From assembly GCA_045632345.1 (NCBI GenBank), contig JAZQWM010000082.1, positions 26,220 through 90,219 on the forward strand: a stretch of 64,000 bases of DNA. The letters are read 5' to 3'. Each line of letters starts with the position of its first letter. Position 1 is the first letter of the stretch. A program made the translations under genes and the position numbers. Shown one piece after another: positions 1,446-55,864 of the stretch. The notes beneath the pieces were generated by a model, which had not been told where the DNA came from, did no database searches, and saw only the letters and a program-made list of their open reading frames with translations. This DNA comes from Eubacteriales bacterium (GTDB lineage Bacteria > Bacillota > Clostridia > Oscillospirales > CAG-272).

Positions 1446-2783
1446 TTATTTCTTTTCTAAGTTTTCTTTTACTTTTGTCCAATAATAGTCGTATTCATAC
1501 ACATAACATCCTACGCTATCAGTGCTTATTTTTTGGCTTTCGTTACGATTCTTTTTTGCATCAGTGTTAATTCTTACAAGCTCATTGATTAAAAGCTTAT
1601 CCTTTACATAATAGCCATATCCATTATGCTTATTTTGCGCTTTATAACACTTTAACTCATCAACTTGTGTGTGAGCCTCGCAAAAAATTGTATAACCACC
1701 AATGATTTTTTTGCGAAGGAAATAATACTTCAAATAACTGTTTAATAGCATACAGTCATCTAGCTGCTCTTGAGTCGTAGCATTTGTGGCAAGCCTGATG
1801 CCTGACACTCTTACGGTCATCTTGTAGTTTGAGTAGTAATAATCCTCATATTCCACAGATACGGAGTGTTCTCCAAAAAGCTCCTTGATAAAATCAACAA
1901 TAGCGGCATTTTGTGGTCTTTCAATTTCAATTGTAACTGATCCCCATAAATCCTTTTTATAGCTTTCATAGCATTTTATTCCGGCTGTGGTATCAAAGAA
2001 ATTTATTCCGCGATCTTCACCGCTTTGGTTAGCGGTATCACTAGTTTCGGAGTTGGTTGCGGTGTTTTTCACAACCGCCTTTTCTTTTATCTCGTGATGG
2101 TCGCCAACCTTTACAATTTCAAATTGCTTTCCATTAGCGATAAAAATAGGATAATTATCCGATTTTTCTTTTTCTGTAAGAAGATGAGCGCAAATAAGGT
2201 TGCTTTCTACAGTCTTTCCACCGTGCTTTTTAGGCAAAATGTGAGTAACGGTCCATCCATACTCGCTGCCTGACTGACCATACGCTTGCTTGTCAATTCT
2301 TCTTCCAGAAAAATCCTTTACAACCAAATCCTTGCCGTAGTGCTTTTTCCAAATAGCCATGGCTGTTTTGGTAGTAAGCTCTAAGGTAGGCTCATTGATT
2401 TTAGTCGTATCGCTCTTTGCTGTGTCTTGATTTTTTACAGTTGGTTGATTTTTAACGGTTGGTTTTTCTCTGATTTCATAATGGTTTTCAACCTTTATGA
2501 TTTCAAATTGCTTTTTGTTTGCGGTAAATACAGGATATTTATCCGCCTTTTCATCATTTGTTAGAATATGAGTACAGATAAGGTTGCTCTCGGTATCCTT
2601 TCCACCTCTGCTTTTTGGCAAAATGTGGTCAAGATTCCATCCGAACTCGCTTCCTCGTTGATCGTATGCACCCTTTTCCATTTCTCTACCTGCAAAGTCC
2701 TTTACTCTTGTTGCTTTGCCGTAGCGCTGCTTCCATAGGCGCATTGCGTTTTCTCTGTTAATATCCATTCGTTTTTCTTTCAT
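1446..2783 (-). CDS. tandem double-HNH nuclease-domain protein with an uncharacterised ~200-aa C-terminal domain
   Basis: Two ~110-aa internal repeats each carry an HNH-like motif (GWNLDHILPKSRGGKDTESNLICTHILTNDEK; GWTVTHILPKKHGGKTVESNLICAHLLTEKEK). AAGGAG RBS lies 8 nt upstream of the ATG. Confidence 0.7.
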   Translation of the reverse strand: MKEKRMDINRENAMRLWKQRYGKATRVKDFAGREMEKGAYDQRGSEFGWNLDHILPKSRGGKDTESNLICTHILTNDEKADKYPVFTANKKQFEIIKVENHYEIREKPTVKNQPTVKNQDTAKSDTTKINEPTLELTTKTAMAIWKKHYGKDLVVKDFSGRRIDKQAYGQSGSEYGWTVTHILPKKHGGKTVESNLICAHLLTEKEKSDNYPIFIANGKQFEIVKVGDHHEIKEKAVVKNTATNSETSDTANQSGEDRGINFFDTTAGIKCYESYKKDLWGSVTIEIERPQNAAIVDFIKELFGEHSVSVEYEDYYYSNYKMTVRVSGIRLATNATTQEQLDDCMLLNSYLKYYFLRKKIIGGYTIFCEAHTQVDELKCYKAQNKHNGYGYYVKDKLLINELVRINTDAKKNRNESQKISTDSVGCYVYEYDYYWTKVKENLEKK

Positions 2784-2874
2784 ATAAACTATCTCCTTTA
2801 AATTAAAAATTAAATTGTCTGGGAAATAATCTATATCTAAATGAACCTCCTTTGCAGTCCATTACAAATGCATT

Positions 2875-2953
2875 GACCGACCGTTAGGGTGACCTAATGC
2901 TGTAAGCCTCAAGGGGCAATCCTCATAACAGCGTTCCAGAAGATTTGTCAGTC
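2875..2953 (-). promoter_or_regulatory. unclassified GC-rich structured 5' leader (candidate three-way junction) of the HNH gene
   Basis: Minus-strand pairings: GACUGAC/GUCGGUC (2947-2953 with 2875-2881), GCUGU/ACAGC (2928-2932 with 2899-2903), UUAGG-UCAC-CCUAA (2884-2897). GC content is clearly above the flanks. Confidence 0.3.
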
Positions 2954-2998
2954 GCCTTTAATTAAAAAAGGGGGTAGATTCGTTGTAACTGCATATTT

Positions 2999-6399: not shown

Positions 6400-8733
6400 T
6401 TATTTCTTAATCTTGTACGTTACGTGTACTGCGTTACCGCCTGTTAAGAGAATCATCTCAACTGCTGTCTTTGAGAAGTCGCCAGCCTTAACGATAAGTG
6501 GCTTATTAAGTGTTCCTCTTGCAAGAACCTTAACCGTCTTTGCTCTCTTATCAATAAGCTTCTTTTCCTTCATTGAAGCAAGGTTAACAATATCGTGAGC
6601 CTCGAATGCATCAGATAACGTATCAACGTTAACGATCGCTTTCTTTGTATCCTTAGCGCTAACGTACTCAACGCCTTCCTCTACGTGAACGTCGATATGT
6701 TGTTCCTCAGCGATTTGGTCTGCATCCTCTGCGCTGATTTCTTCAACGATAACCTCGTGCTCCTCGTAAACCTCTTCGATTACTTCTTCTTCGATTACTT
6801 CTTCGATAATTTCAACAGGAGCTTCCTCGATAACTTCCTCGGCCACCTCTGGGGCTACCTCTGGGGCTACCTCTTCGATAATTTCAACAGGAACTTCCTC
6901 AGCTACCTCTTCTACCACCTCAGGAACAGCCTCTTCAACTACTTCCTCGTTAGGTACTTCAGCAACTAATGCTTCTTCCTCAGTTACCTCTTCAACCGGC
7001 TTTGTTGATTTAACTATGATTGCATCATCAGGAATTAAGAGCTTAATTAAGCCACGCTCGATAAGTGGAGCATTTTCCTCATATGGATACATTGCAATAT
7101 AGTCAACTTCCTTAGCCTTTGGTTTTGTTTCAATTTCAAACTTAGCCATTACGATGTCAACAAGCTCCTTAGCCTTTCTAAGACCTAAGCCGCTCTTAAC
7201 CTTAACAAGCATTGGAACGTCTGCGAAGATTTTTGCATCGATTGCTTCGTGGTGATACTTGGACTTGTCAAATTCGTTAGGATCAAGGTTGCAGTAGAGA
7301 CAAATTGTCTTACCTCTTAGCTTCATCTTGAAGAGCTGATCTCTACCTCTGTTGTAGCTATCAAACTTCCAGCTAATTCTTGACTTAACGCCCTTGAATG
7401 ATAAAATGTAATTCTTTAATTCATTGTAATAACCCTTAACTGTGTCATCACTTTGAATGATGTTAGCAGTAATGCTACGGCTGAGCTTAATGTCAAGCTT
7501 GTTGCCGTCCTTATCAAAGTATGTAGGAACAACTACTGTGTTAGCTTCATCGGAAACCTCAACTACCTCCGGAGCTGGCTCCTCAGCCACTTCCTCGATA
7601 ATCTCAACAGGAGCTTCCTCGACAACCTCTTCAATAACCTCAACAGGTACTTCCTCAACTACTTCCTCAACTACTTCCTCAACCACCTCTGGGGCTACCT
7701 CTTCAGCTGCAGGGATTGGTTCTTCAACAACCTCAACAACCTCTTCAATAGCTTCCTCAGCAGTCTTTTCGGATTCTTCCTCAGCTACCTCTTCGATAAT
7801 TTCAACAGGAACTTCAGGGGCTACTTCCTCGGCTACCTCTTCGATAATTTCAACAGGTACTTCTTCAACAACCTCTGGGGCTACCTCTTCAACAACATCT
7901 TCAACTACCTTCTCAACAGGAGCCTCTGCTTCGAGAACGCCGCGTGAGAATAATTGAATTGTAAAGATAGATTCAGCGCCACTCTTATCAAGAATGATTT
8001 CGCCGTCCTTCTTAAAGCCCCAGCCTAAGAAGTTGTCATACTGCTCGTTTTCTTCAGGTAAAGAAAGCTTTAAGTAGTGTGATTCCTTATAGATATTTTT
8101 GTTAGCTACGCTGTCTGTAAAGAGAAGGTCAACGATAGCCTCGCTATTTGTTGGTACACCCGCTTGGCTAACTGGGCTTTCTTCAAATATTGGATAAAGA
8201 TTAATTACAAATGTTGCTTCAACGTCTTCCTTGGTGAGAATTGGCGCTTCATCAGGTGCAAAGCCCCAGCCATCAATTTCAACACCGTCGATTTGCTCAT
8301 CAGGAAGCTTTGTGTTAAGAACGAAGAATTCCTTCTTAACTGCTATATCCTCATCAGCGTCCATGTAATTAAACTCGATAGAAACTGCACTATTTGTTTC
8401 AACGTCCTCCCAAATTGTGTAAAGAGTTGTTGAACGAACTAAACAAAAAACAGAGTTTTCAATAGGCTTGGATTTACCAAGAACCTTTGACCAACCGATA
8501 AGCTTCTTGCCACTCTTTGCAGAGCCGTGGAGCTTAACCTTTTTGAAAAGCGGATGCTTTTCTGTGTGGATAACTACGTCGCCTTCTGTATCCACGTAAG
8601 TAATTGTTGGGCGAACTGTTAAAAGAACGATGCCCATTGTAAGAGCAATAACGGCAACAACGGCGAATAACCATGGGTTAACGTCGAAGATTGAAAGTGT
8701 TACTGCTTGGTTTAACAAACAAGTAAAATTCAT
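6400..8733 (-). CDS. membrane-anchored protein with InlB-B-like repeats, two acidic E/V/P low-complexity regions and a uL15-like C-terminal domain
   Basis: GGAGG RBS 7 nt before ATG 8733 (the track start 8787 is less likely). N-terminal TM helix. GW...TLYxIW-type repeats. C-terminus KVLARGTLNKPLIVKAGDFSKTAVEMILLTGGNAV resembles the ribosomal protein L15 C-terminus. Confidence 0.75.
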   Translation of the reverse strand: MNFTCLLNQAVTLSIFDVNPWLFAVVAVIALTMGIVLLTVRPTITYVDTEGDVVIHTEKHPLFKKVKLHGSAKSGKKLIGWSKVLGKSKPIENSVFCLVRSTTLYTIWEDVETNSAVSIEFNYMDADEDIAVKKEFFVLNTKLPDEQIDGVEIDGWGFAPDEAPILTKEDVEATFVINLYPIFEESPVSQAGVPTNSEAIVDLLFTDSVANKNIYKESHYLKLSLPEENEQYDNFLGWGFKKDGEIILDKSGAESIFTIQLFSRGVLEAEAPVEKVVEDVVEEVAPEVVEEVPVEIIEEVAEEVAPEVPVEIIEEVAEEESEKTAEEAIEEVVEVVEEPIPAAEEVAPEVVEEVVEEVVEEVPVEVIEEVVEEAPVEIIEEVAEEPAPEVVEVSDEANTVVVPTYFDKDGNKLDIKLSRSITANIIQSDDTVKGYYNELKNYILSFKGVKSRISWKFDSYNRGRDQLFKMKLRGKTICLYCNLDPNEFDKSKYHHEAIDAKIFADVPMLVKVKSGLGLRKAKELVDIVMAKFEIETKPKAKEVDYIAMYPYEENAPLIERGLIKLLIPDDAIIVKSTKPVEEVTEEEALVAEVPNEEVVEEAVPEVVEEVAEEVPVEIIEEVAPEVAPEVAEEVIEEAPVEIIEEVIEEEVIEEVYEEHEVIVEEISAEDADQIAEEQHIDVHVEEGVEYVSAKDTKKAIVNVDTLSDAFEAHDIVNLASMKEKKLIDKRAKTVKVLARGTLNKPLIVKAGDFSKTAVEMILLTGGNAVHVTYKIKK
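6700..7000. repeat. in-frame degenerate tandem repeats encoding (E-E-V-x) acidic tract 1
   Basis: Repeated gaagaagt/ctcttcgataatttcaacagg units. They generate spurious antisense ORFs. Confidence 0.8.
7550..7940. repeat. in-frame degenerate tandem repeats encoding acidic tract 2
   Basis: Same unit family as 6700-7000 (ctcttcgataatttcaacagg occurs in both tracts). Confidence 0.8.
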
Positions 8734-8920
8734 AAAAAACCTCCAAAAAATATTCGATACGTACTGTTCGTTGTTATAATTATACAATAATATTATTTAT
8801 TTGTCAACAAATAATTATTAAAATCAGTAAAGTTTTTTGTGAAATTTAGACACTCTGTCCACCGTTTTTTCATTTTGGAGCGTCTTGATTAACAAAAATA
8901 ACGTCAAACTAAATTTACTA

Positions 8921-10285: not shown

Positions 10286-10289
10286 TCAA

Positions 10290-10348
10290 GTTCGCTTCGC
10301 TCACAGGGGATAGGATATAGGAGATAGGGGCTCGCTTCGCTCACAGGG
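10290..10348. repeat. composite repeat: 18-mer / GWYAG heptad tract / 18-mer
   Basis: gttcgcttcgctcacagg (10290-10307), ggggataggatataggagatagggg (10306-10330, GATAG/TATAG/GATAG spaced 7 nt), ggctcgcttcgctcacaggg (10329-10348). Confidence 0.9.
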
Positions 10349-10637
10349 AAAATTACACATTGCTTAACAACGAACAAATTATTTCACAACCTGCAAAGCA
10401 AGCCACATTATGTTTTGCGTCTGCGGAATGTATCTTTACCACGCGCAATGCATATTGAAAATAAAAATTTTGATAAGTTTTTCTATAAATTTTGCATTGA
10501 ATATCAAGCAAATTGAAAAAATATTAAAAAATATTGATTTTTCTATTGATTTTTTGAAAGCTTTATGCTATAATACCATTCGCTTATGATTTTGAACACA
10601 TAACTGTTTACATAATAAAACTTACGGAGGATTAATT

Positions 10638-15266: not shown

Positions 15267-15267
15267 A

Positions 15268-15317
15268 GGTTCGCTACGCGAACAGCAGTCAGCGGTTAGC
15301 CGTCAGCGGATAGCGAG
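15268..15317. repeat. 18-mer variant hairpin + GWYAG heptad tract directly after the AKR stop
   Basis: ggttcgctacgcgaac (perfect hairpin variant of the 18-mer), then GTCAG/GTTAG/GTCAG/GATAG at exact 7-nt spacing (15288-15313). Confidence 0.85.
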
Positions 15318-15426
15318 ATTTCAAAACGATTTGAAAAAATCAAGCGGTCAGCAAGCAGTGCCACGCCCCCGTCCCCTGTCACCGCTAAATTGATGAAAAG
15401 TTTTCAGTATAACATATTGTTTTAAT

Positions 15427-15456: not shown

Positions 15457-15537
15457 GTTGGAATTATTGCCCACAAATTACGATTTGTCGCATTAAAATC
15501 AAAAAACTAATTTTGCTGACTGCAGGCGGTTAACACA

Positions 15538-15666
15538 TCTGCTTCGCAGAGCGATATGTCGTGCAATGCACGCGCGATATAACCGAATAACTTCGGTAGC
15601 GATATGCTTTCCCTAGGCGAAAGCTCGATATTCCGCCAAAGGCGGAGCGATATGCACCTTCGGTGC
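15538..15666. repeat. mini-hairpin array A2 (six hairpins, GCGATAT linkers)
   Basis: tctgcttcgcaga-GCGATAT-gtcgtgcaatgcacgc-GCGATAT-aaccgaataacttcggt-aGCGATAT-gctttccctaggcgaaagc-tCGATAT-tccgccaaaggcgga-GCGATAT-gcaccttcggtgc. Confidence 0.9.
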
Positions 15667-15700
15667 GTGCTGACGGCTAACAGCTAACAGCTAACGGCTA
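15667..15700. repeat. heptad tract (gctgacg gctaaca gctaaca gctaacg gcta) overlapping the GH78 stop codon
   Basis: CTRAC core every 7 nt on the plus strand, which reads GTTAG on the GH78 coding strand. Confidence 0.85.
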
Positions 15701-17830
15701 AAAAATATATTTTCCTGCTGAAACGTTGTGTGTTACGCCGTCAATTATAATCGTGCTTTCAACAGGTGTTTCGATTTCGTAGCGGATTTTGTTGTCAACG
15801 TGGTACCATTTTGAGGACACAACGCCTTGCTTTGTTTCAATTTTTGCGGACAGGTGGCTAAGCTTGTCCGTTGGCTTTGGTGCGATTAAGATTTTTTTAA
15901 AGCCGGGCGCAAGTGGCTTAATGCCACAGGCTTCCTCGTAAATCCAATCGGCAACGCTACCATAGGCGTAGTGGTTAAAGGAATTCATATCCTTTGACCA
16001 GAAATCGCCCTGCTCGTTTTTGCCGTCCCAATGCTCCCAAATTGTAGTTGCGCCTTGGTTAACAGAGTAGAGCCATGAAGGGAAATCCTCTTGTAAAAGT
16101 AGGTTATATGCAGTTTCTGTGTAGCCATTTTGAGATAACGCGTGGAGTAAAAACGGAGTGCCAACAAATCCTGTTTTTAGCTTGTTGCCGTTTTTCACAA
16201 TCATGGTATTTAGCTGCTTTGCTACCTTTTCCTTGTCGGTTGCTATATCAAAATAAAGTGCCAATGCACACTCTGTTTGAGTTTTGTATTTTTTAAAGGT
16301 TTTTCTAATTCTACTAAGTATTCTTTCTTGTAGGTGGCGGTATTTTTTACTGCTTCTGCCTAAAATTTCGCACACATCCCCCACTATTTTAACAGAATTG
16401 TAGTAAAATACAGAGCCGATAAAGTCATCATTTGATGAGCCTTTATAATCTCCTGCAGGAGCGTCAAGTCCTAGCCAGTCGCCAAATTGCCAGCATCCGT
16501 ACCATAAATATCTTCTTGTGGTGTGAGTGCGAATGTAGTCAAGGTATCTAACCATTGTTTTAAGTTGATTTTTAAGGAAATCAACGTTACCATAGGTCAT
16601 ATACATTGTGTATGGAATAATAGTTGAGCTATCTCCCCATACTGCTCCGCTTTCCTCACTTGTTGACCAGTCCCAGCATACGGTTTGAGGGATAATGTTT
16701 GGAATGTTGCCCTGTTTACCTTGGTCAAGGCGCATATCCGTTAGCCATTTAGTAAAGAATTTTTCTACGTCAAAATTATATGATGCAGTTCTGCAAAAGA
16801 CGGTGGCATCTCCTGTCCAGCCCTGTCTTTCATCTCTTTGAGGACAATCGGTAGGCACGTCAAGGAAGTTGCCCTTCTGTCCCCAAATTATATTTGAAAA
16901 TAGTTGGTTAAGCTTTGGATTTGAGCTTTCAATATAGCCTGTTCTCTTTATATCGGAGTGAACAACGATAGCCTTGATATTTTCCTTTGTAATTTCAGTC
17001 GGGAAGCTATCAACGCGCATATATCTAAATCCCCAAAACGCTAGCTTTGGTTTATAGGTATTTACGCCCTCATGACAAATATACTCAAATCTTGCCTTGG
17101 CATCACGGTAATTTTCGTTATAGAAGTTGCCGTATTTATCAAGGACCTCACAAACGGTAAATTCTACCTTATCGCCTTTTTGGGCGTTTACGGTAAACTC
17201 AAAATATCCTGTTAAATTTTGACCGAAATCCACGATTGTATCGCCGTTTGGAGCTTTAAATATAGACACAGGTCTAATATTTTCCTGCTCTACGATTTTT
17301 TCGCCCTGTTGCTTTACGATAATTTCTTTAGTGTGGTCAAGTATAGATACAGGCACTAAGGTGTTTTCAAAATTGCTATCGTAAATTTCCCCATCGTAAA
17401 GCTCTGCAAAGCGTAATTTGTCCTTGCGCCCTTGCCAGCTATTATCTGTTACAATCGTTTCCTTAGCTCCGTCCTTATATAAAATTTCAATTTGGCAAAT
17501 TAAAGCTTTTGGCACATCGTTTGCTACAACGAAGTTGATTTTGCCGTTATACCAGCCATCTCCCACTAAAATTTCAAGGGAGTTTTCCTTTTGGAGCATG
17601 CTTATAATATCATACTCCTGATACTGCACTCTTTTTCTTGAGGTAAAGCCGGGGGCTAAAATAAAATTCCCAACTCTTACTCCATTTAACTCAGGATAGT
17701 AACAGCCTAAGGAAGTAACAAACAGCGTTGCTTTTTTTACTTCCTTATTTATATTAAATTTCTTAACGAAGCATGATGGCTCATATAAAATATTATTTGG
17801 ATGTGTTATCCATTTTGCATTTTCAAACAT
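15698..17830 (-). CDS. alpha-L-rhamnosidase (GH78 family)
   Basis: GH78 signature region DVPTDCPQRDERQGWTGDA. Start overlaps the upstream stop (TAATG). Confidence 0.9.
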   Translation of the reverse strand: MFENAKWITHPNNILYEPSCFVKKFNINKEVKKATLFVTSLGCYYPELNGVRVGNFILAPGFTSRKRVQYQEYDIISMLQKENSLEILVGDGWYNGKINFVVANDVPKALICQIEILYKDGAKETIVTDNSWQGRKDKLRFAELYDGEIYDSNFENTLVPVSILDHTKEIIVKQQGEKIVEQENIRPVSIFKAPNGDTIVDFGQNLTGYFEFTVNAQKGDKVEFTVCEVLDKYGNFYNENYRDAKARFEYICHEGVNTYKPKLAFWGFRYMRVDSFPTEITKENIKAIVVHSDIKRTGYIESSNPKLNQLFSNIIWGQKGNFLDVPTDCPQRDERQGWTGDATVFCRTASYNFDVEKFFTKWLTDMRLDQGKQGNIPNIIPQTVCWDWSTSEESGAVWGDSSTIIPYTMYMTYGNVDFLKNQLKTMVRYLDYIRTHTTRRYLWYGCWQFGDWLGLDAPAGDYKGSSNDDFIGSVFYYNSVKIVGDVCEILGRSSKKYRHLQERILSRIRKTFKKYKTQTECALALYFDIATDKEKVAKQLNTMIVKNGNKLKTGFVGTPFLLHALSQNGYTETAYNLLLQEDFPSWLYSVNQGATTIWEHWDGKNEQGDFWSKDMNSFNHYAYGSVADWIYEEACGIKPLAPGFKKILIAPKPTDKLSHLSAKIETKQGVVSSKWYHVDNKIRYEIETPVESTIIIDGVTHNVSAGKYIF

Positions 17831-18848: not shown

Positions 18849-18900
18849 TAGCAATATAGCCTTACAGCCATAAACGTTATTAAATCAACAACTAATCTAG

Positions 18901-18959
18901 CTACCCGCTAACGGCTGGCGTTGCCCTGCTGACCACTGACCACTGACCACTGACCACTC
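18901..18959. repeat. heptad tract, nine units in register, ending in perfect (ACTGACC)x4
   Basis: ctacc..ctaac..ctggc..tgccc..ctgac x4, core positions 18901, 08, 15, 22, 29, 36, 43, 50, 57. Confidence 0.95.
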
Positions 18960-24755: not shown

Positions 24756-27266
24756 ATGAAAAAATTTACTCTATTAATTTTAGCGATTGTATGTGTTTTA
24801 GCATCAGTATTGCTTGTGTCATGTGGTAATACAAGCTCCGATACAACACAAACAAGATGCAAGCACGAATTTAAGGCTCCTGTTGTATTAAAAGAGCCAA
24901 GCTGCGCTGAGGACGGTTATGAATTTACAGAATGCCGTCTTTGTAACTATGGTACCGTAGAGGTTATCTATTCAACAAACGGCGGCCATAAGGTTGAGAA
25001 AATTCCTGCAGTTGAAGCAGACTGCTTTAACGAGGGTCTTTCCGAGGGCGAAAAATGCTCACTTTGTGGCGAAATCCTTAAGGGTCAGCTTCCAACAGGC
25101 TTAGTTTCACACGCTTATGCTGACGGAATTTGTATGATTTGCGGCTCTAACGCCAACAGCGACGGTATTGAATACGTTCTTAACTATGACAAAACATATT
25201 CAGTTAAGTCAATCGGTACCTGTAAGAGCGAAAACATCGTTATTCCTAGCGAATACGAGGGTGCAGCAGTTACTGCTATCTTAGACGGCGCATTCAAAAA
25301 CTGTAAGAACCTTAAATCAGTTGAGATTCCATCATCTGTAACAAAAATCGGTCAAGGTGCATTTGCAGGCTGTGCTAAGCTTGAAAAGCTCGTTCTTCCA
25401 TTTGTGGGCGGCAAGCTTAATATAGACGGCGTAGCTTCAAAATCTACACTTTTCGGCTACATCTTTGGCGAAGAAAAGGCTGACGGCTGCTACGGTGTAA
25501 AGCAATACATAACAAAGAGCGAGGGCTACACGGTATATATCCCTAACTCACTTAAAATTGTAAGAATTGACAACGCTTCATCCTTACCATATGGTACGTT
25601 CTACGGTGTAAAATCACTTACAAGCCTTGAAATCGGCGGTGATTTTTCTGTAATCGGCAACAGAGCCTTCTATGGCTGTACCTCTCTTGCGGAGCTATAT
25701 TTACCTGAATCAATTATGGAAATTGAGGGCTATGCATTTGGCAACTGCTCCGCATTAAAGACTGCTCCTGATATGTCCTTAGTTGAATCTCTTGGCGAAT
25801 ATGCATTCTATAACTGCTCATCACTTGAATCAATCGAGCTTGCAAGAGGCATTTACACTATCGGCACATATACGTTCTATAAATGCTCTGCTTTAACTGA
25901 GGTTTCATTACCAGACAGTATTCGCAAGATTGAGTCCTACGCTTTTGCTGCTTGCTCAAAGCTTGCTTCTATTACTCTTGGCGATAACGTAATTTCAATC
26001 GGCGAGGGTGCATTTACAAAGTGTACTGCTCTTACAAGCATTAATATTCCTGCTTCAGTTGAAACGTTAGAGGATAGCGTATTCAGCGGTTGTACTGCTC
26101 TTACGTCAGTTTCACTCAGCAGCGGAATTAAGGAGCTTGGCGATAGCTTATTCTATGGTTGCTCAGGCTTACAAACAATCGTAATTCCTGCAAGCGTAAC
26201 TGAGTTCGGTCAAGATATGTTTATTGGCTGTACTTCACTTAACGACCTTCAAATTGATGAAAACAACCCTGCATACTCATTTGAGGACGGCGTTTTATAT
26301 TCAAAGGACAAAAAGACACTTATTCTCTATATGCCAGGCAGAGAGGGTATCGTATTTGAAATTCCTTCAAACGTAGAAAAGATTGAAGCGTATGCATTCT
26401 ACGGCAACGAAACAATCAAGGAATTAACGGTTGGTAACAGCGTTAAGGAAATTGGCGAATACGCTTTTGCAAAATCAATGATTACAACTCTTGTATTCAA
26501 TGCAGATATGGACACAGTTCCTGCAAGAGCATTTAACAACTGCGAAAAGCTTGTATCAATCACTCTTGGCGAATCTATTGAGAAAATCGGCGATTATGCA
26601 TTCTATGGCGCAGGCTTCGAGGAAATCGTTTTACCTGAAAGCATAAAGGAAATCGGTAAATATTCATTTGCTAAAAACATAAACCTTAAATCTTTAACAA
26701 TCCCATCGAATGTAAAAACATTAGGCGAAGCATCATTCTATGCTTGTACTTCACTTGAAGAATTAGCTTTTGAAATCGGAGTACAAAAGATTGGTAAACA
26801 CGCATTTAACGGTTGTACAGGCTTAAAGAGTGTAGATTTAGGAGAGGGAGTGTCTGCGATTGAGGGTCAAGCATTCAGTGGTTGTACCGCACTTACAGAA
26901 ATTAATATCCCATCAAACGTTAAAACCTTAGGCGACGGTGTGTTTAACGCATGTACTGCACTTGAAAGCGTAACGTTTGGTGACGGAGTGCAAACAATTG
27001 GTAAGCAAGCATTCTACGGTTGCACAGGCTTAAAGAGTATCGTAATCGGCTCAGGCATAACCTCAATCGGTAGCTCTGCATTCAGCGGTTGTACAGCTTT
27101 AATGGAAATCTATATTCCCATTTCAGTAACTTCAATCGGCGATGGCGCATTCAATAAATGCCCAGAAACAGGCGAGATCAGATGTGAGGCTTCCGAAAAG
27201 CCATCAGGCTGGAGCGACAAGTGGAACTACTCCAAGCTTGGTGTTACTTGGGGCGTAATTGACTAA
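24756..27266 (+). CDS. BspA-type leucine-rich-repeat surface lipoprotein
   Basis: Lipobox LLVSCGN and more than 20 LRR units of the IGxxAFxGCxxLxxIxIP type. Confidence 0.9.
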   Translation: MKKFTLLILAIVCVLASVLLVSCGNTSSDTTQTRCKHEFKAPVVLKEPSCAEDGYEFTECRLCNYGTVEVIYSTNGGHKVEKIPAVEADCFNEGLSEGEKCSLCGEILKGQLPTGLVSHAYADGICMICGSNANSDGIEYVLNYDKTYSVKSIGTCKSENIVIPSEYEGAAVTAILDGAFKNCKNLKSVEIPSSVTKIGQGAFAGCAKLEKLVLPFVGGKLNIDGVASKSTLFGYIFGEEKADGCYGVKQYITKSEGYTVYIPNSLKIVRIDNASSLPYGTFYGVKSLTSLEIGGDFSVIGNRAFYGCTSLAELYLPESIMEIEGYAFGNCSALKTAPDMSLVESLGEYAFYNCSSLESIELARGIYTIGTYTFYKCSALTEVSLPDSIRKIESYAFAACSKLASITLGDNVISIGEGAFTKCTALTSINIPASVETLEDSVFSGCTALTSVSLSSGIKELGDSLFYGCSGLQTIVIPASVTEFGQDMFIGCTSLNDLQIDENNPAYSFEDGVLYSKDKKTLILYMPGREGIVFEIPSNVEKIEAYAFYGNETIKELTVGNSVKEIGEYAFAKSMITTLVFNADMDTVPARAFNNCEKLVSITLGESIEKIGDYAFYGAGFEEIVLPESIKEIGKYSFAKNINLKSLTIPSNVKTLGEASFYACTSLEELAFEIGVQKIGKHAFNGCTGLKSVDLGEGVSAIEGQAFSGCTALTEINIPSNVKTLGDGVFNACTALESVTFGDGVQTIGKQAFYGCTGLKSIVIGSGITSIGSSAFSGCTALMEIYIPISVTSIGDGAFNKCPETGEIRCEASEKPSGWSDKWNYSKLGVTWGVID

Positions 27267-36962: not shown

Positions 36963-37550
36963 TTATGCTATAACCTTGATTTCAACATGCTCAGCATGCT
37001 CCTTTACCTTTTTGGCAAATGCTACTGCGCTTACAAAATCGCTTGGTCTTATGGTAATTTCCGCTTTTAAATCTTCCTTTTCGTCTATAACCACGCCGCT
37101 GAACAGTGAGGTATTATCCGTTGCGAATACCACAAGCTTTTTAGACACCCAAATACATTTTATATCCTCATAATTTATTCTGTATTCCTTGCCGTAGTGA
37201 TAGCATACAAGCTTTTCGTCAATGAACGTATAAAATGAGCATTCTCCCCCTACCGTTACGCAGTTTTCAAGATACGTTTGGCTTGATTTTCCTCTATACA
37301 TAGCAACGATAACGCCTAGCTTTTCTAGATAGCTTACAAGCTCAAGGACTAAGCTCATATCCTTTTTCTTAAAGCTTACGTAGGTATCGTTTACGTTGAT
37401 ATATCCCTTTGACAAAAATCCCGGCTTTTTAATGAACACGCTTTCAATTTTGCCAAACGTAAACCTGTTTGCTTCGTACGTTCTTGTGATTAGTCCATCT
37501 GCACCAAGCTCAATGGAGCTGCCTGTTTAAAATTCAAATTTTTTACTCAT
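36963..37550 (-). pseudogene. hypothetical protein gene with an in-frame TAA at codon 8 (37527-37529)
   Basis: ATG 37550 has an AAGAGG RBS. The frame reads MSKKFEF*TGSSIELGADGLITRTYEANRFTFGKIES and runs straight into track ORF 36963-37439, which starts on a GTG with no RBS. Confidence 0.65.
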
Positions 37551-37676: not shown

Positions 37677-38543
37677 TTAACGGCTTTTATATTCCTTTAA
37701 AATTTCGCCTGCTACGTAATCGTTTACTCTGCCCTGGTAGTGGATTAAGTCCCAACGGAAAATGTTACAGTCCCACGCGTATTCGTCATAAAGCGGGCAA
37801 GTCCTTACATCGTAAACTGACGCGTTTTTCATTTCCTTAGCAAGAATATCAAAGGTGTCATTGATATAATGCATGCTCTCAAGACGGCTTCCGCCGTCCT
37901 CTTTATCACGGTTAGCAAATACCTTATTAAATGGGAAGCGGTGGAATACTACGGGCGCATCACAACCGATAGCAGAGCGAATACCACCGAAGATTTCAAG
38001 ATACGTATCCTTTAAAAACGTCTCTAATTTAGACACAGGGTAGTCTGTTTCCTGCTCTCCTCCACGCCAATGTATGCCTACATAGTCAGGCTCTAGCTCA
38101 TTTGCTTCCATGTACTTTTTAAAGAGTGTTAGCACGTGAATAGCAAGAGGATACATGGAAATATCACAATCTCCAAGCTTACCTCTTATCATTTTTGGCG
38201 CACGCTTAGGGTCCCACATACCTGTAACCCCCTGTGAGCCAATAGCTATATGAATAATATAAAGGTCAGGTAATTCTACGCCGCTATCAATATCATTTTG
38301 CCAATGCTTAGCAAGGCAGTTTGCTATGGAATATGTGTTATCCTGTGTCTCTGCAAGATTCATACCGTAGCTTGTATAACCTGTAAACTTTAATTTTTCT
38401 GTATCGTATGATTGGTTAGGCTCTCTATTTAAGCCCCATACATTTTTAAGAGGCACTTTAATAATATCCTCTTCACTCATAGGCATAGCGTGGCCAACTG
38501 CATTTGATTGACCGAATAACATAAAAATAGCAATTTTTTTCAT
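37677..38543 (-). CDS. sialate O-acetylesterase-like (DUF303/SGNH-type) carbohydrate esterase
   Basis: N-terminal GQSNAVGH motif. The true start is probably ATG 38543 (MKKIAIFMLFGQSN), preceded by the shared leader TGACTGAAAGGAACGAA. The track's 26 extra codons translate repeat DNA. Confidence 0.7.
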   Translation of the reverse strand: MKKIAIFMLFGQSNAVGHAMPMSEEDIIKVPLKNVWGLNREPNQSYDTEKLKFTGYTSYGMNLAETQDNTYSIANCLAKHWQNDIDSGVELPDLYIIHIAIGSQGVTGMWDPKRAPKMIRGKLGDCDISMYPLAIHVLTLFKKYMEANELEPDYVGIHWRGGEQETDYPVSKLETFLKDTYLEIFGGIRSAIGCDAPVVFHRFPFNKVFANRDKEDGGSRLESMHYINDTFDILAKEMKNASVYDVRTCPLYDEYAWDCNIFRWDLIHYQGRVNDYVAGEILKEYKSR

Positions 38544-38574
38544 TTCGTTCCTTTCAGTCACTTCATTCAAGGAG

Positions 38575-39112
38575 TCAGGGGACAGGGGTTCGCTTCGCTC
38601 ACAGGGATAGTTAGTAAACAATTTTTTATAACTAATCCACAGCTATCTCGCATTTTTCCAAATCACCTGAATAAATCCTACCTTTAAAGTGCATTTAATC
38701 ATTTAGACTTAATTTTTTCACTATTGCATTTATTAGTTTAGCTACTTCTTTACAACCTTGCATAACAGTATCTACTGTTTCTTCTTTTTCAAAATAGCCA
38801 AGCATTTTACAAATTTCTAACTGTGTTTCAAGTTCTGCTCTTGACGCATTTGCGATAAATAAAAACTGTATGTATTCCTTTGTGCTTCTTCGCTCGTATC
38901 CTTCTGCAATGTTGGAAGGAATAGAAATAACGCTTCTTCTCATTTGATCTGCTAAAGCAAACCTCTCATTGTTTGGTAATTGATTTATAAGCCCATATGT
39001 ATCTTTTACCAAATCCATTGCTTTTTGCCAAACCACTAAATCTCTATAATCTCTCATAAACTAATCCCCCTGTGAGCAAGGCGAACCCCTGTCTCCTGTC
39101 CCTTGTCCCCTG
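38575..39112 (-). mobile_element. inverted-repeat-bounded cassette carrying a four-helix-bundle gene (IVS-like / MITE-like element)
   Basis: Left arm is tcaggggacaggggttcgcttcgctcacaggg (38575-38606). The reverse complement of the right arm (39066-39112) is caggggacaagggacaggagacaggggttcgccttgctcacaggggg. The core of about 25 nt matches with 2 mismatches. Confidence 0.65.
38695..39057 (-). CDS. four-helix-bundle protein (23S rRNA intervening-sequence protein family, Avd-like)
   Basis: MRDYRDLVVWQKAMDLV...ISIPSNIAEGYERRSTKEYIQFL...ELETQLEI matches the family signature closely. Its RBS (AGGGGG) lies inside the cassette arm. Confidence 0.9.
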   Translation of the reverse strand: MRDYRDLVVWQKAMDLVKDTYGLINQLPNNERFALADQMRRSVISIPSNIAEGYERRSTKEYIQFLFIANASRAELETQLEICKMLGYFEKEETVDTVMQGCKEVAKLINAIVKKLSLND

Positions 39113-39277
39113 TTATACTATTTCATAAGAAAACATTTCGTACTTCAAATGTGTGCCAATATCAACGCCCTCAGGCAATAATGCCATTGCGATAAATATT
39201 TCGTTTTCTGTGTTTTCCTCAAGTATGTAGGCGTATTCGCCCTCAATTTTTGTAACTACATAGTATTTTGTTTCCAT
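39113..39277 (-). CDS. small protein, DUF3006-like (54 aa; not in the ORF track)
   Basis: AGGGAG RBS. METKYYVVTKIEGEYAYILEE...LLPEGVDIGTHL resembles the DUF3006 pattern. Confidence 0.55.
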   Translation of the reverse strand: METKYYVVTKIEGEYAYILEENTENEIFIAMALLPEGVDIGTHLKYEMFSYEIV

Positions 39278-45977: not shown

Positions 45978-45985
45978 ACGTAAAA

Positions 45986-46170
45986 GGGGATAGGGTATAG
46001 GGGCTCATTGCATTCGCAGGGGTTCGCTATGCTCACAGGAGAAATTAGTTCGAACGAAAATAACGAAGAAAAGAAATAAGCACTTTCAAGTGGCGTGGAT
46101 AATATAAAATGTCAAAGGATAATGCGATAGAGTAATTACCCTATCCCCTATCCCCTGACCCCTGTCCCCT
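45986..46170 (+). mobile_element. gene-less inverted-repeat element in the pheS-pheT spacer (same family as 38575-39112)
   Basis: Left arm ggggatagggtatagggg (45986-46003) plus 18-mer ggttcgctatgctcacagg (46021-46039). Right arm ccctatcccctatcccctgacccctgtcccct (46139-46170). The arms pair at 16 of 17 positions. Confidence 0.65.
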
Positions 46171-46174
46171 TGAG

Positions 46175-46193
46175 TGACTGAAAGGAACGAAAT
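46175..46193 (+). promoter_or_regulatory. shared RBS leader TGACTGAAAGGAACGAA(AT) immediately 5' of the pheT ATG
   Basis: The 17-nt string is identical to the reverse complement of 38544-38560, upstream of the esterase ATG. A related ACTGAAAGGAGTGAAC lies at 33167-33182. Confidence 0.8.
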
Positions 46194-48683: not shown

Positions 48684-48723
48684 GGCTCGCTTCGCTCACA
48701 GCCGTCAGCCGTCAGCGGTTAGC
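48684..48723. repeat. 18-mer + GWYAG heptad tract
   Basis: ggctcgcttcgctcacag, then ccgtcag ccgtcag cggttag c. Confidence 0.9.
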
Positions 48724-48765
48724 AAGTTTTGCTCAATGCATATTTTGACCATATAATTCATTGTG

Positions 48766-48795
48766 TAGCTACTAACCACTAGCCACTTACCACTA
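48766..48795. repeat. heptad tract (tagctac taaccac tagccac ttaccac ta)
   Basis: 7-nt periodicity. It reads as the GWYAG type on the minus strand, downstream of the minus-strand gene. Confidence 0.8.
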
Positions 48796-48823
48796 AAAAA
48801 GCAACCGAAATCGGTTGCTTTTG
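48795..48823 (-). terminator. rho-independent terminator (minus strand)
   Basis: AAAAAA-gcaaccga-aa-tcggttgc-TTTTG (bidirectional form). Confidence 0.85.
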
Positions 48824-54338: not shown

Positions 54339-54410
54339 CTAACAATCACTAATCTATCCCGCTGACCGCTATCGGCTAACCGCTGACAGCTGTGAGCGAC
54401 CGAAGGGAGC
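54339..54410. repeat. CTRWC heptad tract + 18-mer variant forming the 5' UTR and RBS of the GT2 gene
   Basis: ctaac..ctatc..ctgac..ctatc..ctaac..ctgac..ctgtg (69-73, 76-80, 83-87 and 90-94 in exact 7-nt register), then ctgtgagcgaccgaagggagc supplying AGGGAG 8 nt before the ATG. Confidence 0.85.
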
Positions 54411-54417
54411 TAACCTA

Positions 54418-55654: not shown

Positions 55655-55685
55655 GACACATCCTAAAGGGGTGTGTCATTTTTTT
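55655..55685 (+). terminator. rho-independent terminator
   Basis: gacacatcc...gggtgtgtc followed by ATTTTTTT. Confidence 0.8.
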
Positions 55686-55864
55686 AGCCGCCAGCCGTTA
55701 GCAGTCAGCCCGCACCGAAGGTGCATATCGCTACGAAGCAGTGCTTCGTTTTATCGCTGAATTACGGAGTAATTTTATATTGCTCGCCGTAGGCGTATCT
55801 CGCTCTGCAAAGCAACGCTTTGCAATTTACCTGTTGCGAAGCAACAATTTACCGCTGGCGGCTA
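55685..55864. repeat. mini-hairpin array A5 (inverted orientation) enclosed by an 11-bp inverted repeat
   Basis: TAGCCGCCAGC (55685-55695) ... gcaccgaaggtgc-ATATCGC-acgaagcagtgcttcgt-tTTATCGC-...-gccgtaggc-...-tgcaaagcaacgctttgca-ATTTACC-tgttgcgaagcaaca-ATTTACCgc ... GCTGGCGGCTA (55854-55864). Confidence 0.85.

Follow-up and report, generated by a model that had tools for sequence, protein, structure and literature searches.

A probable intervening-sequence-type hairpin cassette with a four-helix-bundle gene in an mRNA operon spacer of a Clostridia bacterium

Introduction

Why is a small gene of the protein family known from intervening sequences (IVSs) of 23S rRNA located between two protein-coding genes of a presumed operon, and enclosed by two arms that are reverse complements of each other? 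The question is raised by positions 38544–39112 of a 64,000-nucleotide stretch of DNA (the window, to which all coordinates below refer) that constitutes positions 26,220 to 90,219 of contig JAZQWM010000082.1, assembly GCA_045632345.1, from an Eubacteriales bacterium (Clostridia; Oscillospirales; CAG-272). The gene encodes a four-helix-bundle (4HB) protein, and the S23p or four-helix-bundle family is among the commonest "function unknown" small proteins of bacteria. An earlier note on this DNA, made from the letters alone, suggested an IVS-like selfish cassette that colonises operon spacers without polar effects. The IVS-like interpretation is supported by the analysis presented here, with the arms reassigned to a wider repeat family, and selfishness and lack of polarity are properties that we infer. 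In our reading the element is probably an IVS-type hairpin cassette in an mRNA operon spacer, with derivatives that lack the open reading frame (ORF). Related loci are given L numbers where they have to be told apart.

Structure of the cassette

The cassette and its 4HB gene are read on the minus strand, between two protein-coding genes (Table 1). A repeat search finds inverted arms at 38576–38606 and 39068–39098, each of 31 nt, 90% complementary and 461 nt apart, in agreement with the reverse-complement arms of heptad tract plus module that the earlier note had described, and extra heptad pairing stretches them to 38570 and 39112, giving about 45 bp with the heptads included. The 22-nt motif GGGGTTCGCYTYGCTCACAGGG is present at both arms, with 0.00 matches expected in shuffled sequence, and Tandem Repeats Finder (TRF) reports a period-7 tract with 4 copies at 39086–39113. 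Folding of a 591-nt stretch of the RNA gives a minimum free energy of -153.6 kcal/mol (z = -5.0 compared to shuffles), and in the predicted structure the arms form a closing long-range stem of about 45 bp that encloses the whole ORF. The heptads begin directly past the stop codon of the DUF3006 gene, and the C-rich tract at the other end stops 26 nt short of the next ATG.

Two ribosomal binding sites had been proposed, and both can be found at the sequence level: GGGGGA is located 8–9 nt ahead of the 4HB ATG, and the last letters of the leader GTGACTGAAAGGAACGAAAT are the start codon of the gene that follows. The leader is carried by the element, since the same 20-mer precedes two unrelated genes, at 38542–38561(-) and at 46174–46193(+), the latter before pheT. 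It is kept in the related loci L001, L005, L216 and L217, and is found as GACTGAAAGGA in L010, L081 and L087. A promoter and terminator scan of the gene string gives nothing beyond chance. No Rfam family corresponds to the arms, at the gathering or at a permissive threshold, and the idea that the Y module (Table 1) is a degenerate hammerhead core was dropped, as Rfam has no match to it even at the permissive threshold. Rfam finds no rRNA gene in the window either, as the earlier note had stated. The gene downstream of the cassette starts at 38543, and the name esterase that the note had given it finds no Pfam match; its product is 91–94% identical in L001 and L003, and 56% identical in L005.

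The four-helix-bundle protein

The inferred 120-residue product matches PF05635 with 127.5 bits (cut-off 33.8, E 3e-37) and TIGR02436 with 130.2 bits (cut-off 24), so that the family assignment of the earlier note stands. An alignment of 28 sequences has 24 invariant positions, among them the R..S..NIAEG motif; R41, S45, N49 and E52-G53 are all invariant, which is the RxxxSxxxNxxE(G) motif described for the PF05635 family (PMC3936711). The nearest solved structure is PDB 2GSC, the XCC0516 protein of Xanthomonas campestris (E 4e-22), which was deposited with five chains, and 2RLD is a further match in sequence similarity. A four-helix-bundle, pentameric fold is thus supported, by homology, for the protein of the window. 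The ratio of nonsynonymous to synonymous substitutions (dN/dS) of the gene against its relatives is 0.15–0.25. The protein is under purifying selection, and the ORF is therefore functional and not in decay. No defence-system model of PADLOC is matched.

PF05635 is the commonest accessory family in surveys of diversity-generating retroelements (DGRs; PMC10053308), and the protein has weak matches to the Avd profiles, with 32.8 bits to NF033474 of NCBIfam and 31.1 bits (E 3.6e-7) to PF22296 (bAvd) of Pfam. The gene might thus be a left-behind Avd accessory gene of an orphan or decayed DGR. Both scores are below the cut-offs, which are 80 and 40, and no RVT domain is found in the window ORFs of at least 220 aa, nor in the neighbours, in accordance with the earlier note, which had seen no reverse transcriptase nearby. 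Around the gene there are only the inverted heptad arms and short chance direct repeats, with no template/variable pair, and the arms recur in 50 of 60 distant loci (see below). A DGR remnant is rejected on these grounds and has hardly any probability left.

Heptad arms at distant loci

An alignment-based scan of metagenome contigs gave 80 4HB loci with 41–54% identity to the query, and 60 of them could be analysed for inverted repeats in the flanks, which were set relative to the conserved NIAEG motif, as arms may overlap over-extended ORFs (e.g. in L160 and L212). An inverted repeat above the 95th percentile of cross-locus pairings joins the flanks in 50 of these 60 loci, and one above the 99th percentile in 36. 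At least one flank has a strong period of 7 in 49% of the loci, as compared to 1.3% of 372 control windows from the same contigs, and there is no enrichment of periods 5, 6, 8 and 9 in the 4HB flanks of the survey. Clear heptads on both sides are seen in 20 loci, with 20 different heptads, and in 15 of them the upstream and downstream heptads are reverse complements of each other with at most one mismatch, against 5.5% of cross pairs. Because lineage-specific heptads are still complementary in these 15 loci, the arms covary across lineages. Most arms have 3–5 units. The upstream neighbour is co-directional in 56 of 63 loci and the downstream neighbour in 40 of 51, with median gaps of 62 and 70 nt, which is little more than the arms themselves. 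Many 4HB loci on viral contigs have the same arm design. The earlier note had asked for arms around other copies of the gene, and these are thus present in close relatives, in the 50 distant loci, in many viral-contig loci and in Xanthomonas, so that, at the level of sequence, the inverted heptad-arm design is general for the 4HB protein family.

The window contains at least nine heptad elements in 64 kb, roughly one per 7 kb, and flanking by repeats is therefore not rare, which would suit an ordinary small gene that by coincidence came to lie between two heptad repeats in a heptad-rich genome. The two arms are, however, mutually complementary and contain the same 22-nt module, relatives with different heptads still have matched arms, and the association is found in 83% of the distant loci when 5% would be expected from cross-locus pairs. 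Coincidence is rejected as an explanation, being extremely improbable.

The operons that contain a 4HB gene are diverse. One copy is located between the genes for prephenate dehydrogenase and DAHP synthase, with CAGTGTT/AACACTG arms, and another between a YitT-family gene and an asparaginase gene, with GGGTGTA/TACACCC arms. At the latter loci (L126–L129) the tandem copy number of a 5' unit of about 78 nt, consisting of heptads, module and a Shine-Dalgarno-like leader, is one, three or at least six depending on the sample, and the 4HB protein is identical despite the varying number of units; one assembly is broken by Ns at this place. In L253 (metagenome-assembled genome (MAG) JBGVPY01) a 66% identical 4HB gene with heptad arms lies inside a restriction-modification defence operon, with an SNF2-type helicase on one side and DUF4391, two N6/N4 methyltransferases and a restriction endonuclease on the other. 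A distant high-GC lineage, with a PheS only 34% identical, has a 4HB gene with GCGGAGTTAGC/GCTAACTCCGC arms in the pheS-pheT spacer (L160, 2416–2928, and L212, about 390–880), and in the window this junction is filled by an ORF-less element. Genes with products 84–85% identical to XCC0516 are located between accB and accC in Xanthomonas arboricola and X. campestris (L249–L251), preceded by the heptads GGGAATC GGGAGTG GAGAATC GGGAATC and followed by complementary heptads of the CCCATTC type; the GGGAATC heptamers around them are those already published as G-quadruplex repeats. Genes of the 23S_rRNA_IVP type have also been reported wedged among cas genes, e.g. between cmr3 and cmr2 (PMC3936711).

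Elements without the gene

The arms of the cassette belong to a genome-wide mosaic repeat family, which is mostly ORF-less and is not private to the 4HB gene. Besides several other heptad tracts, the window has at least two sister copies that lack an ORF. A complete one fills the pheS-pheT spacer, and contains in order G-rich heptads, X and Y modules (the latter at 46019–46040), an orphan Shine-Dalgarno sequence ending in ATTAGTT, a loop of about 100 nt, C-rich heptads and a leader. It ends in the exact 20-mer GTGACTGAAAGGAACGAAAT that is found ahead of the downstream gene of the 4HB cassette, it contains the Shine-Dalgarno-like GGAGAAATTAGTT with no ORF behind it, and it shares with the cassette the sequence CACAGGRG(A)ATTAGTT after the Y module. 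Its heptad arms are paired in the predicted fold. In L001, whose PheS is 95% identical, the pheS-pheT junction is an empty site with a spacer of 14 nt, TAA-GGAGGAATTTTAAA-ATG, and the leader of the element occupies the place of the native GGAGG ribosome-binding site of this relative at pheT. The empty site that the earlier note had asked for is thus at hand for the ORF-less sister, but not for the 4HB locus itself. A target-site duplication is not visible when the filled and empty sites are compared; they come from two different species, and the entire spacer differs.

An arm-motif scan over species-representative genomes gave mostly chance matches in high-GC genomes among those listed, and the informative ones are low-GC MAGs with multiple matches. 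Among the matches listed, a few Clostridia MAGs from gut and rumen have the module in many places, beside heptads, where it often ends in GACTGAAAGGA a few bases ahead of a start codon. The module GGYTCGCYNYGCTCACAGG adjoins heptad or hexad tracts in unrelated lineages (L034, L023/L028/L042/L064, L055, L008 and L009), and the hosts include a Deltaproteobacteria MAG, a "Faecalibacterium" MAG with GGTAAGA heptads, a Bacteroidales MAG and viral contigs; from these occurrences it looks widely shared.

Other heptad elements of the window (Table 1) have several flavours of heptad, including CAGCGGT, GTGGTCA, GCTAACA and ACTAACC. Short GC-rich hairpin arrays are located beside heptad tracts at 15520–15670 and 55700–55790, and also in L097; their stems are variable, (A)GCGATAT(G) comes after every hairpin, and the units recur about every 22–25 nt. 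By their appearance the arrays are a second kind of module in this mosaic repeat family.

Inverted terminal repeats, and many ORF-less copies that have both ends of the ORF-bearing copy, are also what would be expected of a family of DNA transposons or MITEs (miniature transposable elements with inverted repeats), with a transposase encoded elsewhere, or the 4HB protein itself, acting on the arms, and with the ORF-less copies as non-autonomous members. The empty site and the tendency of 4HB homologues to be found on very short contigs, as repeats are, agree with this, and the absence of a G:U bias among the arm mismatches (see below) is compatible with a DNA-level element. Profile searches of the window ORFs find no transposase, however, no target-site duplication can be seen at the pheS-pheT junctions, no strand asymmetry speaks in its favour, and lineages that share the conserved protein have arms of differing unit number and sequence. 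To our knowledge the 4HB fold has no catalytic activity. A transposon or MITE family is accordingly quite improbable.

Relatives at the same site and exchange of the cassette

Close 4HB homologues, 72–95% identical, occupy this site in front of the orthologous 288-aa gene, each with G-rich heptads on the upstream side, C-rich heptads on the downstream side and the same leader. The upstream neighbour varies, and DUF3006 orthologues hold this position in L001, L003 and L216. Exact-protein look-ups gave no identical copies on record of the PheS and DUF3006 proteins of the window. In the closest relative, L216, the flanking DUF3006 gene differs at 14 of 165 nt, with a synonymous divergence (dS) of 0.47, whereas the cassette over its full length, first heptad to leader, has 8 differences in 569 nt, with a dS of 0.014 for the 4HB gene (Fisher p = 3e-5). 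Seven of the eight differences are in the ORF, six of them inside a stretch of 34 nt, and in addition the 3' arm differs by an indel of exactly one 7-nt heptad unit. Exchange through the repeated arms would explain this discordance between cassette and flank. In L005 the 4HB gene is 78% identical and the downstream gene just 56%, with saturated synonymous sites. Taken together with L001 and L003, where the divergence of gene and flanks is alike, these comparisons indicate a long residence at the site, which seems to have been punctuated by exchange of the cassette.

The stable position could also mean that the element is a host-owned regulatory hairpin, in which the heptads are cis-elements for mRNA processing, stability, translational coupling or G-quadruplex control and the 4HB protein is an RNA- or DNA-binding regulator of the host, with nothing selfish or mobile about it. 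Purifying selection on the protein, synteny of the cassette with the downstream gene in several relatives, the flank-like synonymous divergence in L001 and L003 and the lack of a 4HB gene in most heptad elements are in line with such a role, and heptamer repeats of Xanthomonas are transcribed and located in regions of increased genomic stability (PMC4692102). The same family is on the other hand found in unrelated operons across lineages, twice in pheS-pheT, and also inside rRNA helices; a close relative has an empty site; the L216 cassette is far less diverged than its flank, and the L005 gene is better conserved than its neighbour; and unit numbers that vary between strains suit a fixed regulatory element poorly. 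We consider host regulation unlikely as the explanation of the element.

Proposed mechanism

In the IVS-type cassette that we propose, the 4HB gene would be situated in the loop of a long stem, whose arms are inverted arrays of 3–5 heptads together with the 22-nt module. Since there is no convincing internal promoter or terminator, transcription probably reads through from the operon promoter (deoR ... DUF3006, 4HB, downstream gene). The arms would then pair in the transcript over about 45 bp and loop out the ORF, whereby the upstream stop codon should be brought near the downstream start codon and ribosome-binding site, which would limit polarity. Duplexes that are nearly perfect over about 45 bp are classical substrates of RNase III, and by analogy with the ORF-containing 23S rRNA IVSs the stem is likely to be cut by this enzyme. 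With its own Shine-Dalgarno leader at the end of the element, the cassette would leave the downstream gene with a ribosome-binding site. Recombination through the repeated arms might exchange cassettes among genomes or among sites, and cassettes could also decay to ORF-less hairpins, strewn over the intergenic regions of the same genome. Because of the association with heptads, the pentameric relatives and the nucleic-acid binding of Avd, the heptad arms are the candidate target of the 4HB protein, which most likely acts on them as a nucleic-acid-binding pentamer like XCC0516 and Avd.

Several observations weigh against this proposal. There is no empty site for the 4HB locus, and every relative recovered has a 4HB cassette upstream of the same gene. 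The synonymous divergence of the 4HB gene in L001 and L003, resembling that of the flanks, is compatible with a long vertical residence. Among the matches listed, the 8-kb chunks with arm motifs from the low-GC MAGs with multiple matches contain no 4HB ORF; the gene is therefore lacking from most heptad elements, which may or may not depend on it. In its loop the ORF-less pheS-pheT copy has only short and weak matches to 4HB 3' untranslated regions (z 2.4–3.2), so that the descent of this copy from an ORF-bearing cassette is suggested mainly by the shared ends and the orphan Shine-Dalgarno sequence. Mismatches in the arms of the survey include 45 G:U and 57 A:C, without a bias to G:U, and selection on RNA pairing of the sense strand is therefore not demonstrated; the complementarity could be kept up at the DNA level. 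Neither a target-site duplication nor a recombinase is evident.

A tentative extension of the IVS-type cassette, possible although rather doubtful, is that intergenic heptamer repeats mostly stem from one superfamily of PF05635 hairpin cassettes, as their arms and relics. The pentameric protein would then recognise, maintain or propagate its own lineage-specific heptads, with ORF-bearing elements as the autonomous and ORF-less elements as the non-autonomous members, and any well-transcribed spacer, in an rRNA helix or at an operon junction, might be colonised because the stem would loop the cassette out of the host RNA.

Features of the window

The features of the cassette and the other heptad elements are collected in Table 1. 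Downstream of the cassette operon, at 36963–37439 (-), an ORF of 158 aa has a weak LAGLIDADG_3 match with E 0.003, below the curated cut-off. At 1446–2783 (-) an ORF of 445 aa has an HNH endonuclease domain at its N-terminus and is located directly downstream of a full-length match to the Rfam family "Staphylococcus-1" with 107.9 bits, at 2861–2986 (-), forming a pair of HNH gene and small RNA (sRNA). The only Pfam match of a 795-aa ORF with a TTG start, at 6400–8787 (-), is to ribosomal protein L15, residues 718–786, and the rest overlaps long tandem repeats of 12–72 nt (TRF, 6773–7918); the ORF has probably been extended too far, or else encodes a repeat protein on one strand.

Table 1. Cassette, neighbouring genes and other heptad elements of the 64-kb window.
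Feature	Coordinates	Strand	Remarks
Upstream gene	39113..39277	-	54 aa, weak DUF3006 match; stop codon abuts first heptad
5' arm, heptad tract CAGGGGA CAAGGGA CAGGAGA CAGGGG	39086..39112	-	G-rich on coding strand; pairs with 38570-38588
5' arm, 22-nt Y module GGGGTTCGCCTTGCTCACAGGG	39068..39089	-	Repeat and motif searches
Spacer GGATTAGTTT	39058..39067	-	With GGG end of Y module makes up the Shine-Dalgarno region of the 4HB gene; paired in predicted stem
4HB protein gene	38695..39057	-	120 aa; PF05635 / TIGR02436; motif RxxxSxxxNIAEG
3' untranslated stretch	38607..38694	-	88 nt; last part AAAAATTGTTTACTAAC also in ORF-less elements of a related MAG
3' arm, reverse complement of Y module	38585..38606	-	Plus strand reads GGGGTTCGCTTCGCTCACAGGG
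3' arm, heptads	38570..38584	-	C-rich on coding strand; one extra 7-nt unit in close relative
Leader TTGAATGAAGTGACTGAAAGGAACGAA	38544..38569	-	Gives downstream gene its Shine-Dalgarno sequence
Downstream gene	37677..38543	-	288 aa; signal-peptide-like N-terminus, GQSN motif; no Pfam match
ORF-less sister element filling pheS-pheT spacer	45978..46193	+	216 nt
Partial element past glyA stop	10286..10350	+	Two direct Y modules (10287-10348) parted by heptads; no 3' arm
Heptad element of other flavour	15267..15392	+	GGTTCGCTACGC and CAGCGGT-type heptads ... C-rich tract; after aldo-keto reductase gene
Heptad element between convergent genes	48688..48797	+	GGCTCGCTTCGCTCAC and AGCCGTC heptads ... 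ACTAACC heptads
Solo 3'-type arm	54350..54417	+	CCGCTGA heptads and CTGTGAGCGACCGAAGGGAGC; ends at glycosyltransferase start codon
Further heptad tracts	15500-15701, 18900-18958, 55684-55790		TRF and inspection

Comparison with known systems

A close parallel is found in the 23S rRNA IVSs of Leptospira, Coxiella burnetii, Xanthomonas and Brucella, which have in common with the cassette the S23p / PF05635 family and an ORF in a stem loop of terminal repeats. The Coxiella IVS has a terminal inverted-repeat stem that is cut by RNase III, the 5' cut being located at the first tandem heptamer, and 2–3 tandem heptamers (GACAGAT), in a number that varies between strains, upstream of the S23p ORF (PMC4990558); the likeness to this architecture that the earlier note had seen is real, and four tandem heptamers precede the ORF here, at 39086–39112. 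The cassette differs by being located in an mRNA operon and not in helix 9, 25 or 45 of the 23S rRNA, and by abutting a stop codon at one end and ending in a Shine-Dalgarno leader for the next gene at the other. Its ORF also has a good ribosome-binding site and is under purifying selection, whereas the Coxiella ORF is reported to be decaying and probably untranslated. As it is located outside the 23S rRNA, the cassette is therefore a relative of the ORF-containing IVSs and not a member of them.

Among periodic repeats in the intergenic regions of prokaryotes, tandem heptamers are reported to be the most abundant, and they have no known function (10.1101/309039, PMC4692102). Known systems include the GGGAATC and GGGGA(C/T)T G-quadruplex repeats of Xanthomonas and Nostoc, the short tandemly repeated repetitive (STRR) sequences of cyanobacteria and the TAACTGA repeats of Beggiatoaceae, and these intergenic heptamers mostly have about 4 units, lie between co-directional ORFs, often as convergent pairs, and are transcribed (PMC4692102, PMC4679880). 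The Xanthomonas and Nostoc repeats were defined by at least two units that, on the coding strand, are either G-rich and at most 50 bp past a stop codon or C-rich and at most 50 bp ahead of a start. In Xanthomonas 70 of them occur as convergent pairs, and at the heptamer repeats transcripts start or stop more often than in controls (PMC4692102). The cassette has the same tandem units, placement and convergent pair, with arms of 3–5 units. It is set apart by the 4HB gene between the paired repeats, which is also seen in Xanthomonas accB-accC, and by a low-GC, Clostridia-type host. Heptads that are not G-rich are found in many lineages, and G-quadruplex formation is therefore not the general principle. 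A full-text search of the Xanthomonas/Nostoc heptamer paper and the TAACTGA paper found none of the terms four-helix, S23, 23S or intervening, and in the open-access literature, the subscription literature being outside the search, no paper links 4HB genes to flanking heptad arrays beyond the Coxiella IVS.

With Avd of the DGRs the protein shares a homologous pentameric four-helix-bundle fold, and Avd binds nucleic acid and reverse transcriptase; the cassette has neither a reverse transcriptase nor template/variable repeats, and its Avd scores are below the cut-offs. Like MITEs and the mosaics of repetitive extragenic palindromes and bacterial interspersed mosaic elements (REP/BIME), the elements are short, modular, intergenic, palindromic and multi-copy, with ORF-less copies that share their ends with an ORF-bearing one. 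Unlike those, the arms are tandem heptads of variable number, no target-site duplication, transposase or REP-associated tyrosine transposase (RAYT) is seen, and the cassette, which reads strictly in the direction of the genes on either side, has a Shine-Dalgarno leader. XCC0516, a homopentameric toroid with no assigned function, has close homologues that are likewise located between two genes of an operon and flanked by inverted heptads, although the operon is accB-accC and the heptad GGGAATC.

The new aspect is a cassette of the IVS type that is located in spacers of mRNA operons and has a ribosome-binding leader of its own, by which the concept of the intervening sequence is extended from rRNA to mRNA operons. 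It joins two loose ends, the 4HB family without a known function and the unexplained abundance of heptamers, in one hypothesis that can be tested for both, and it suggests a natural design for the non-polar insertion of a gene in an operon, consisting of a stem that loops the gene out and a Shine-Dalgarno leader that the insert brings with it.

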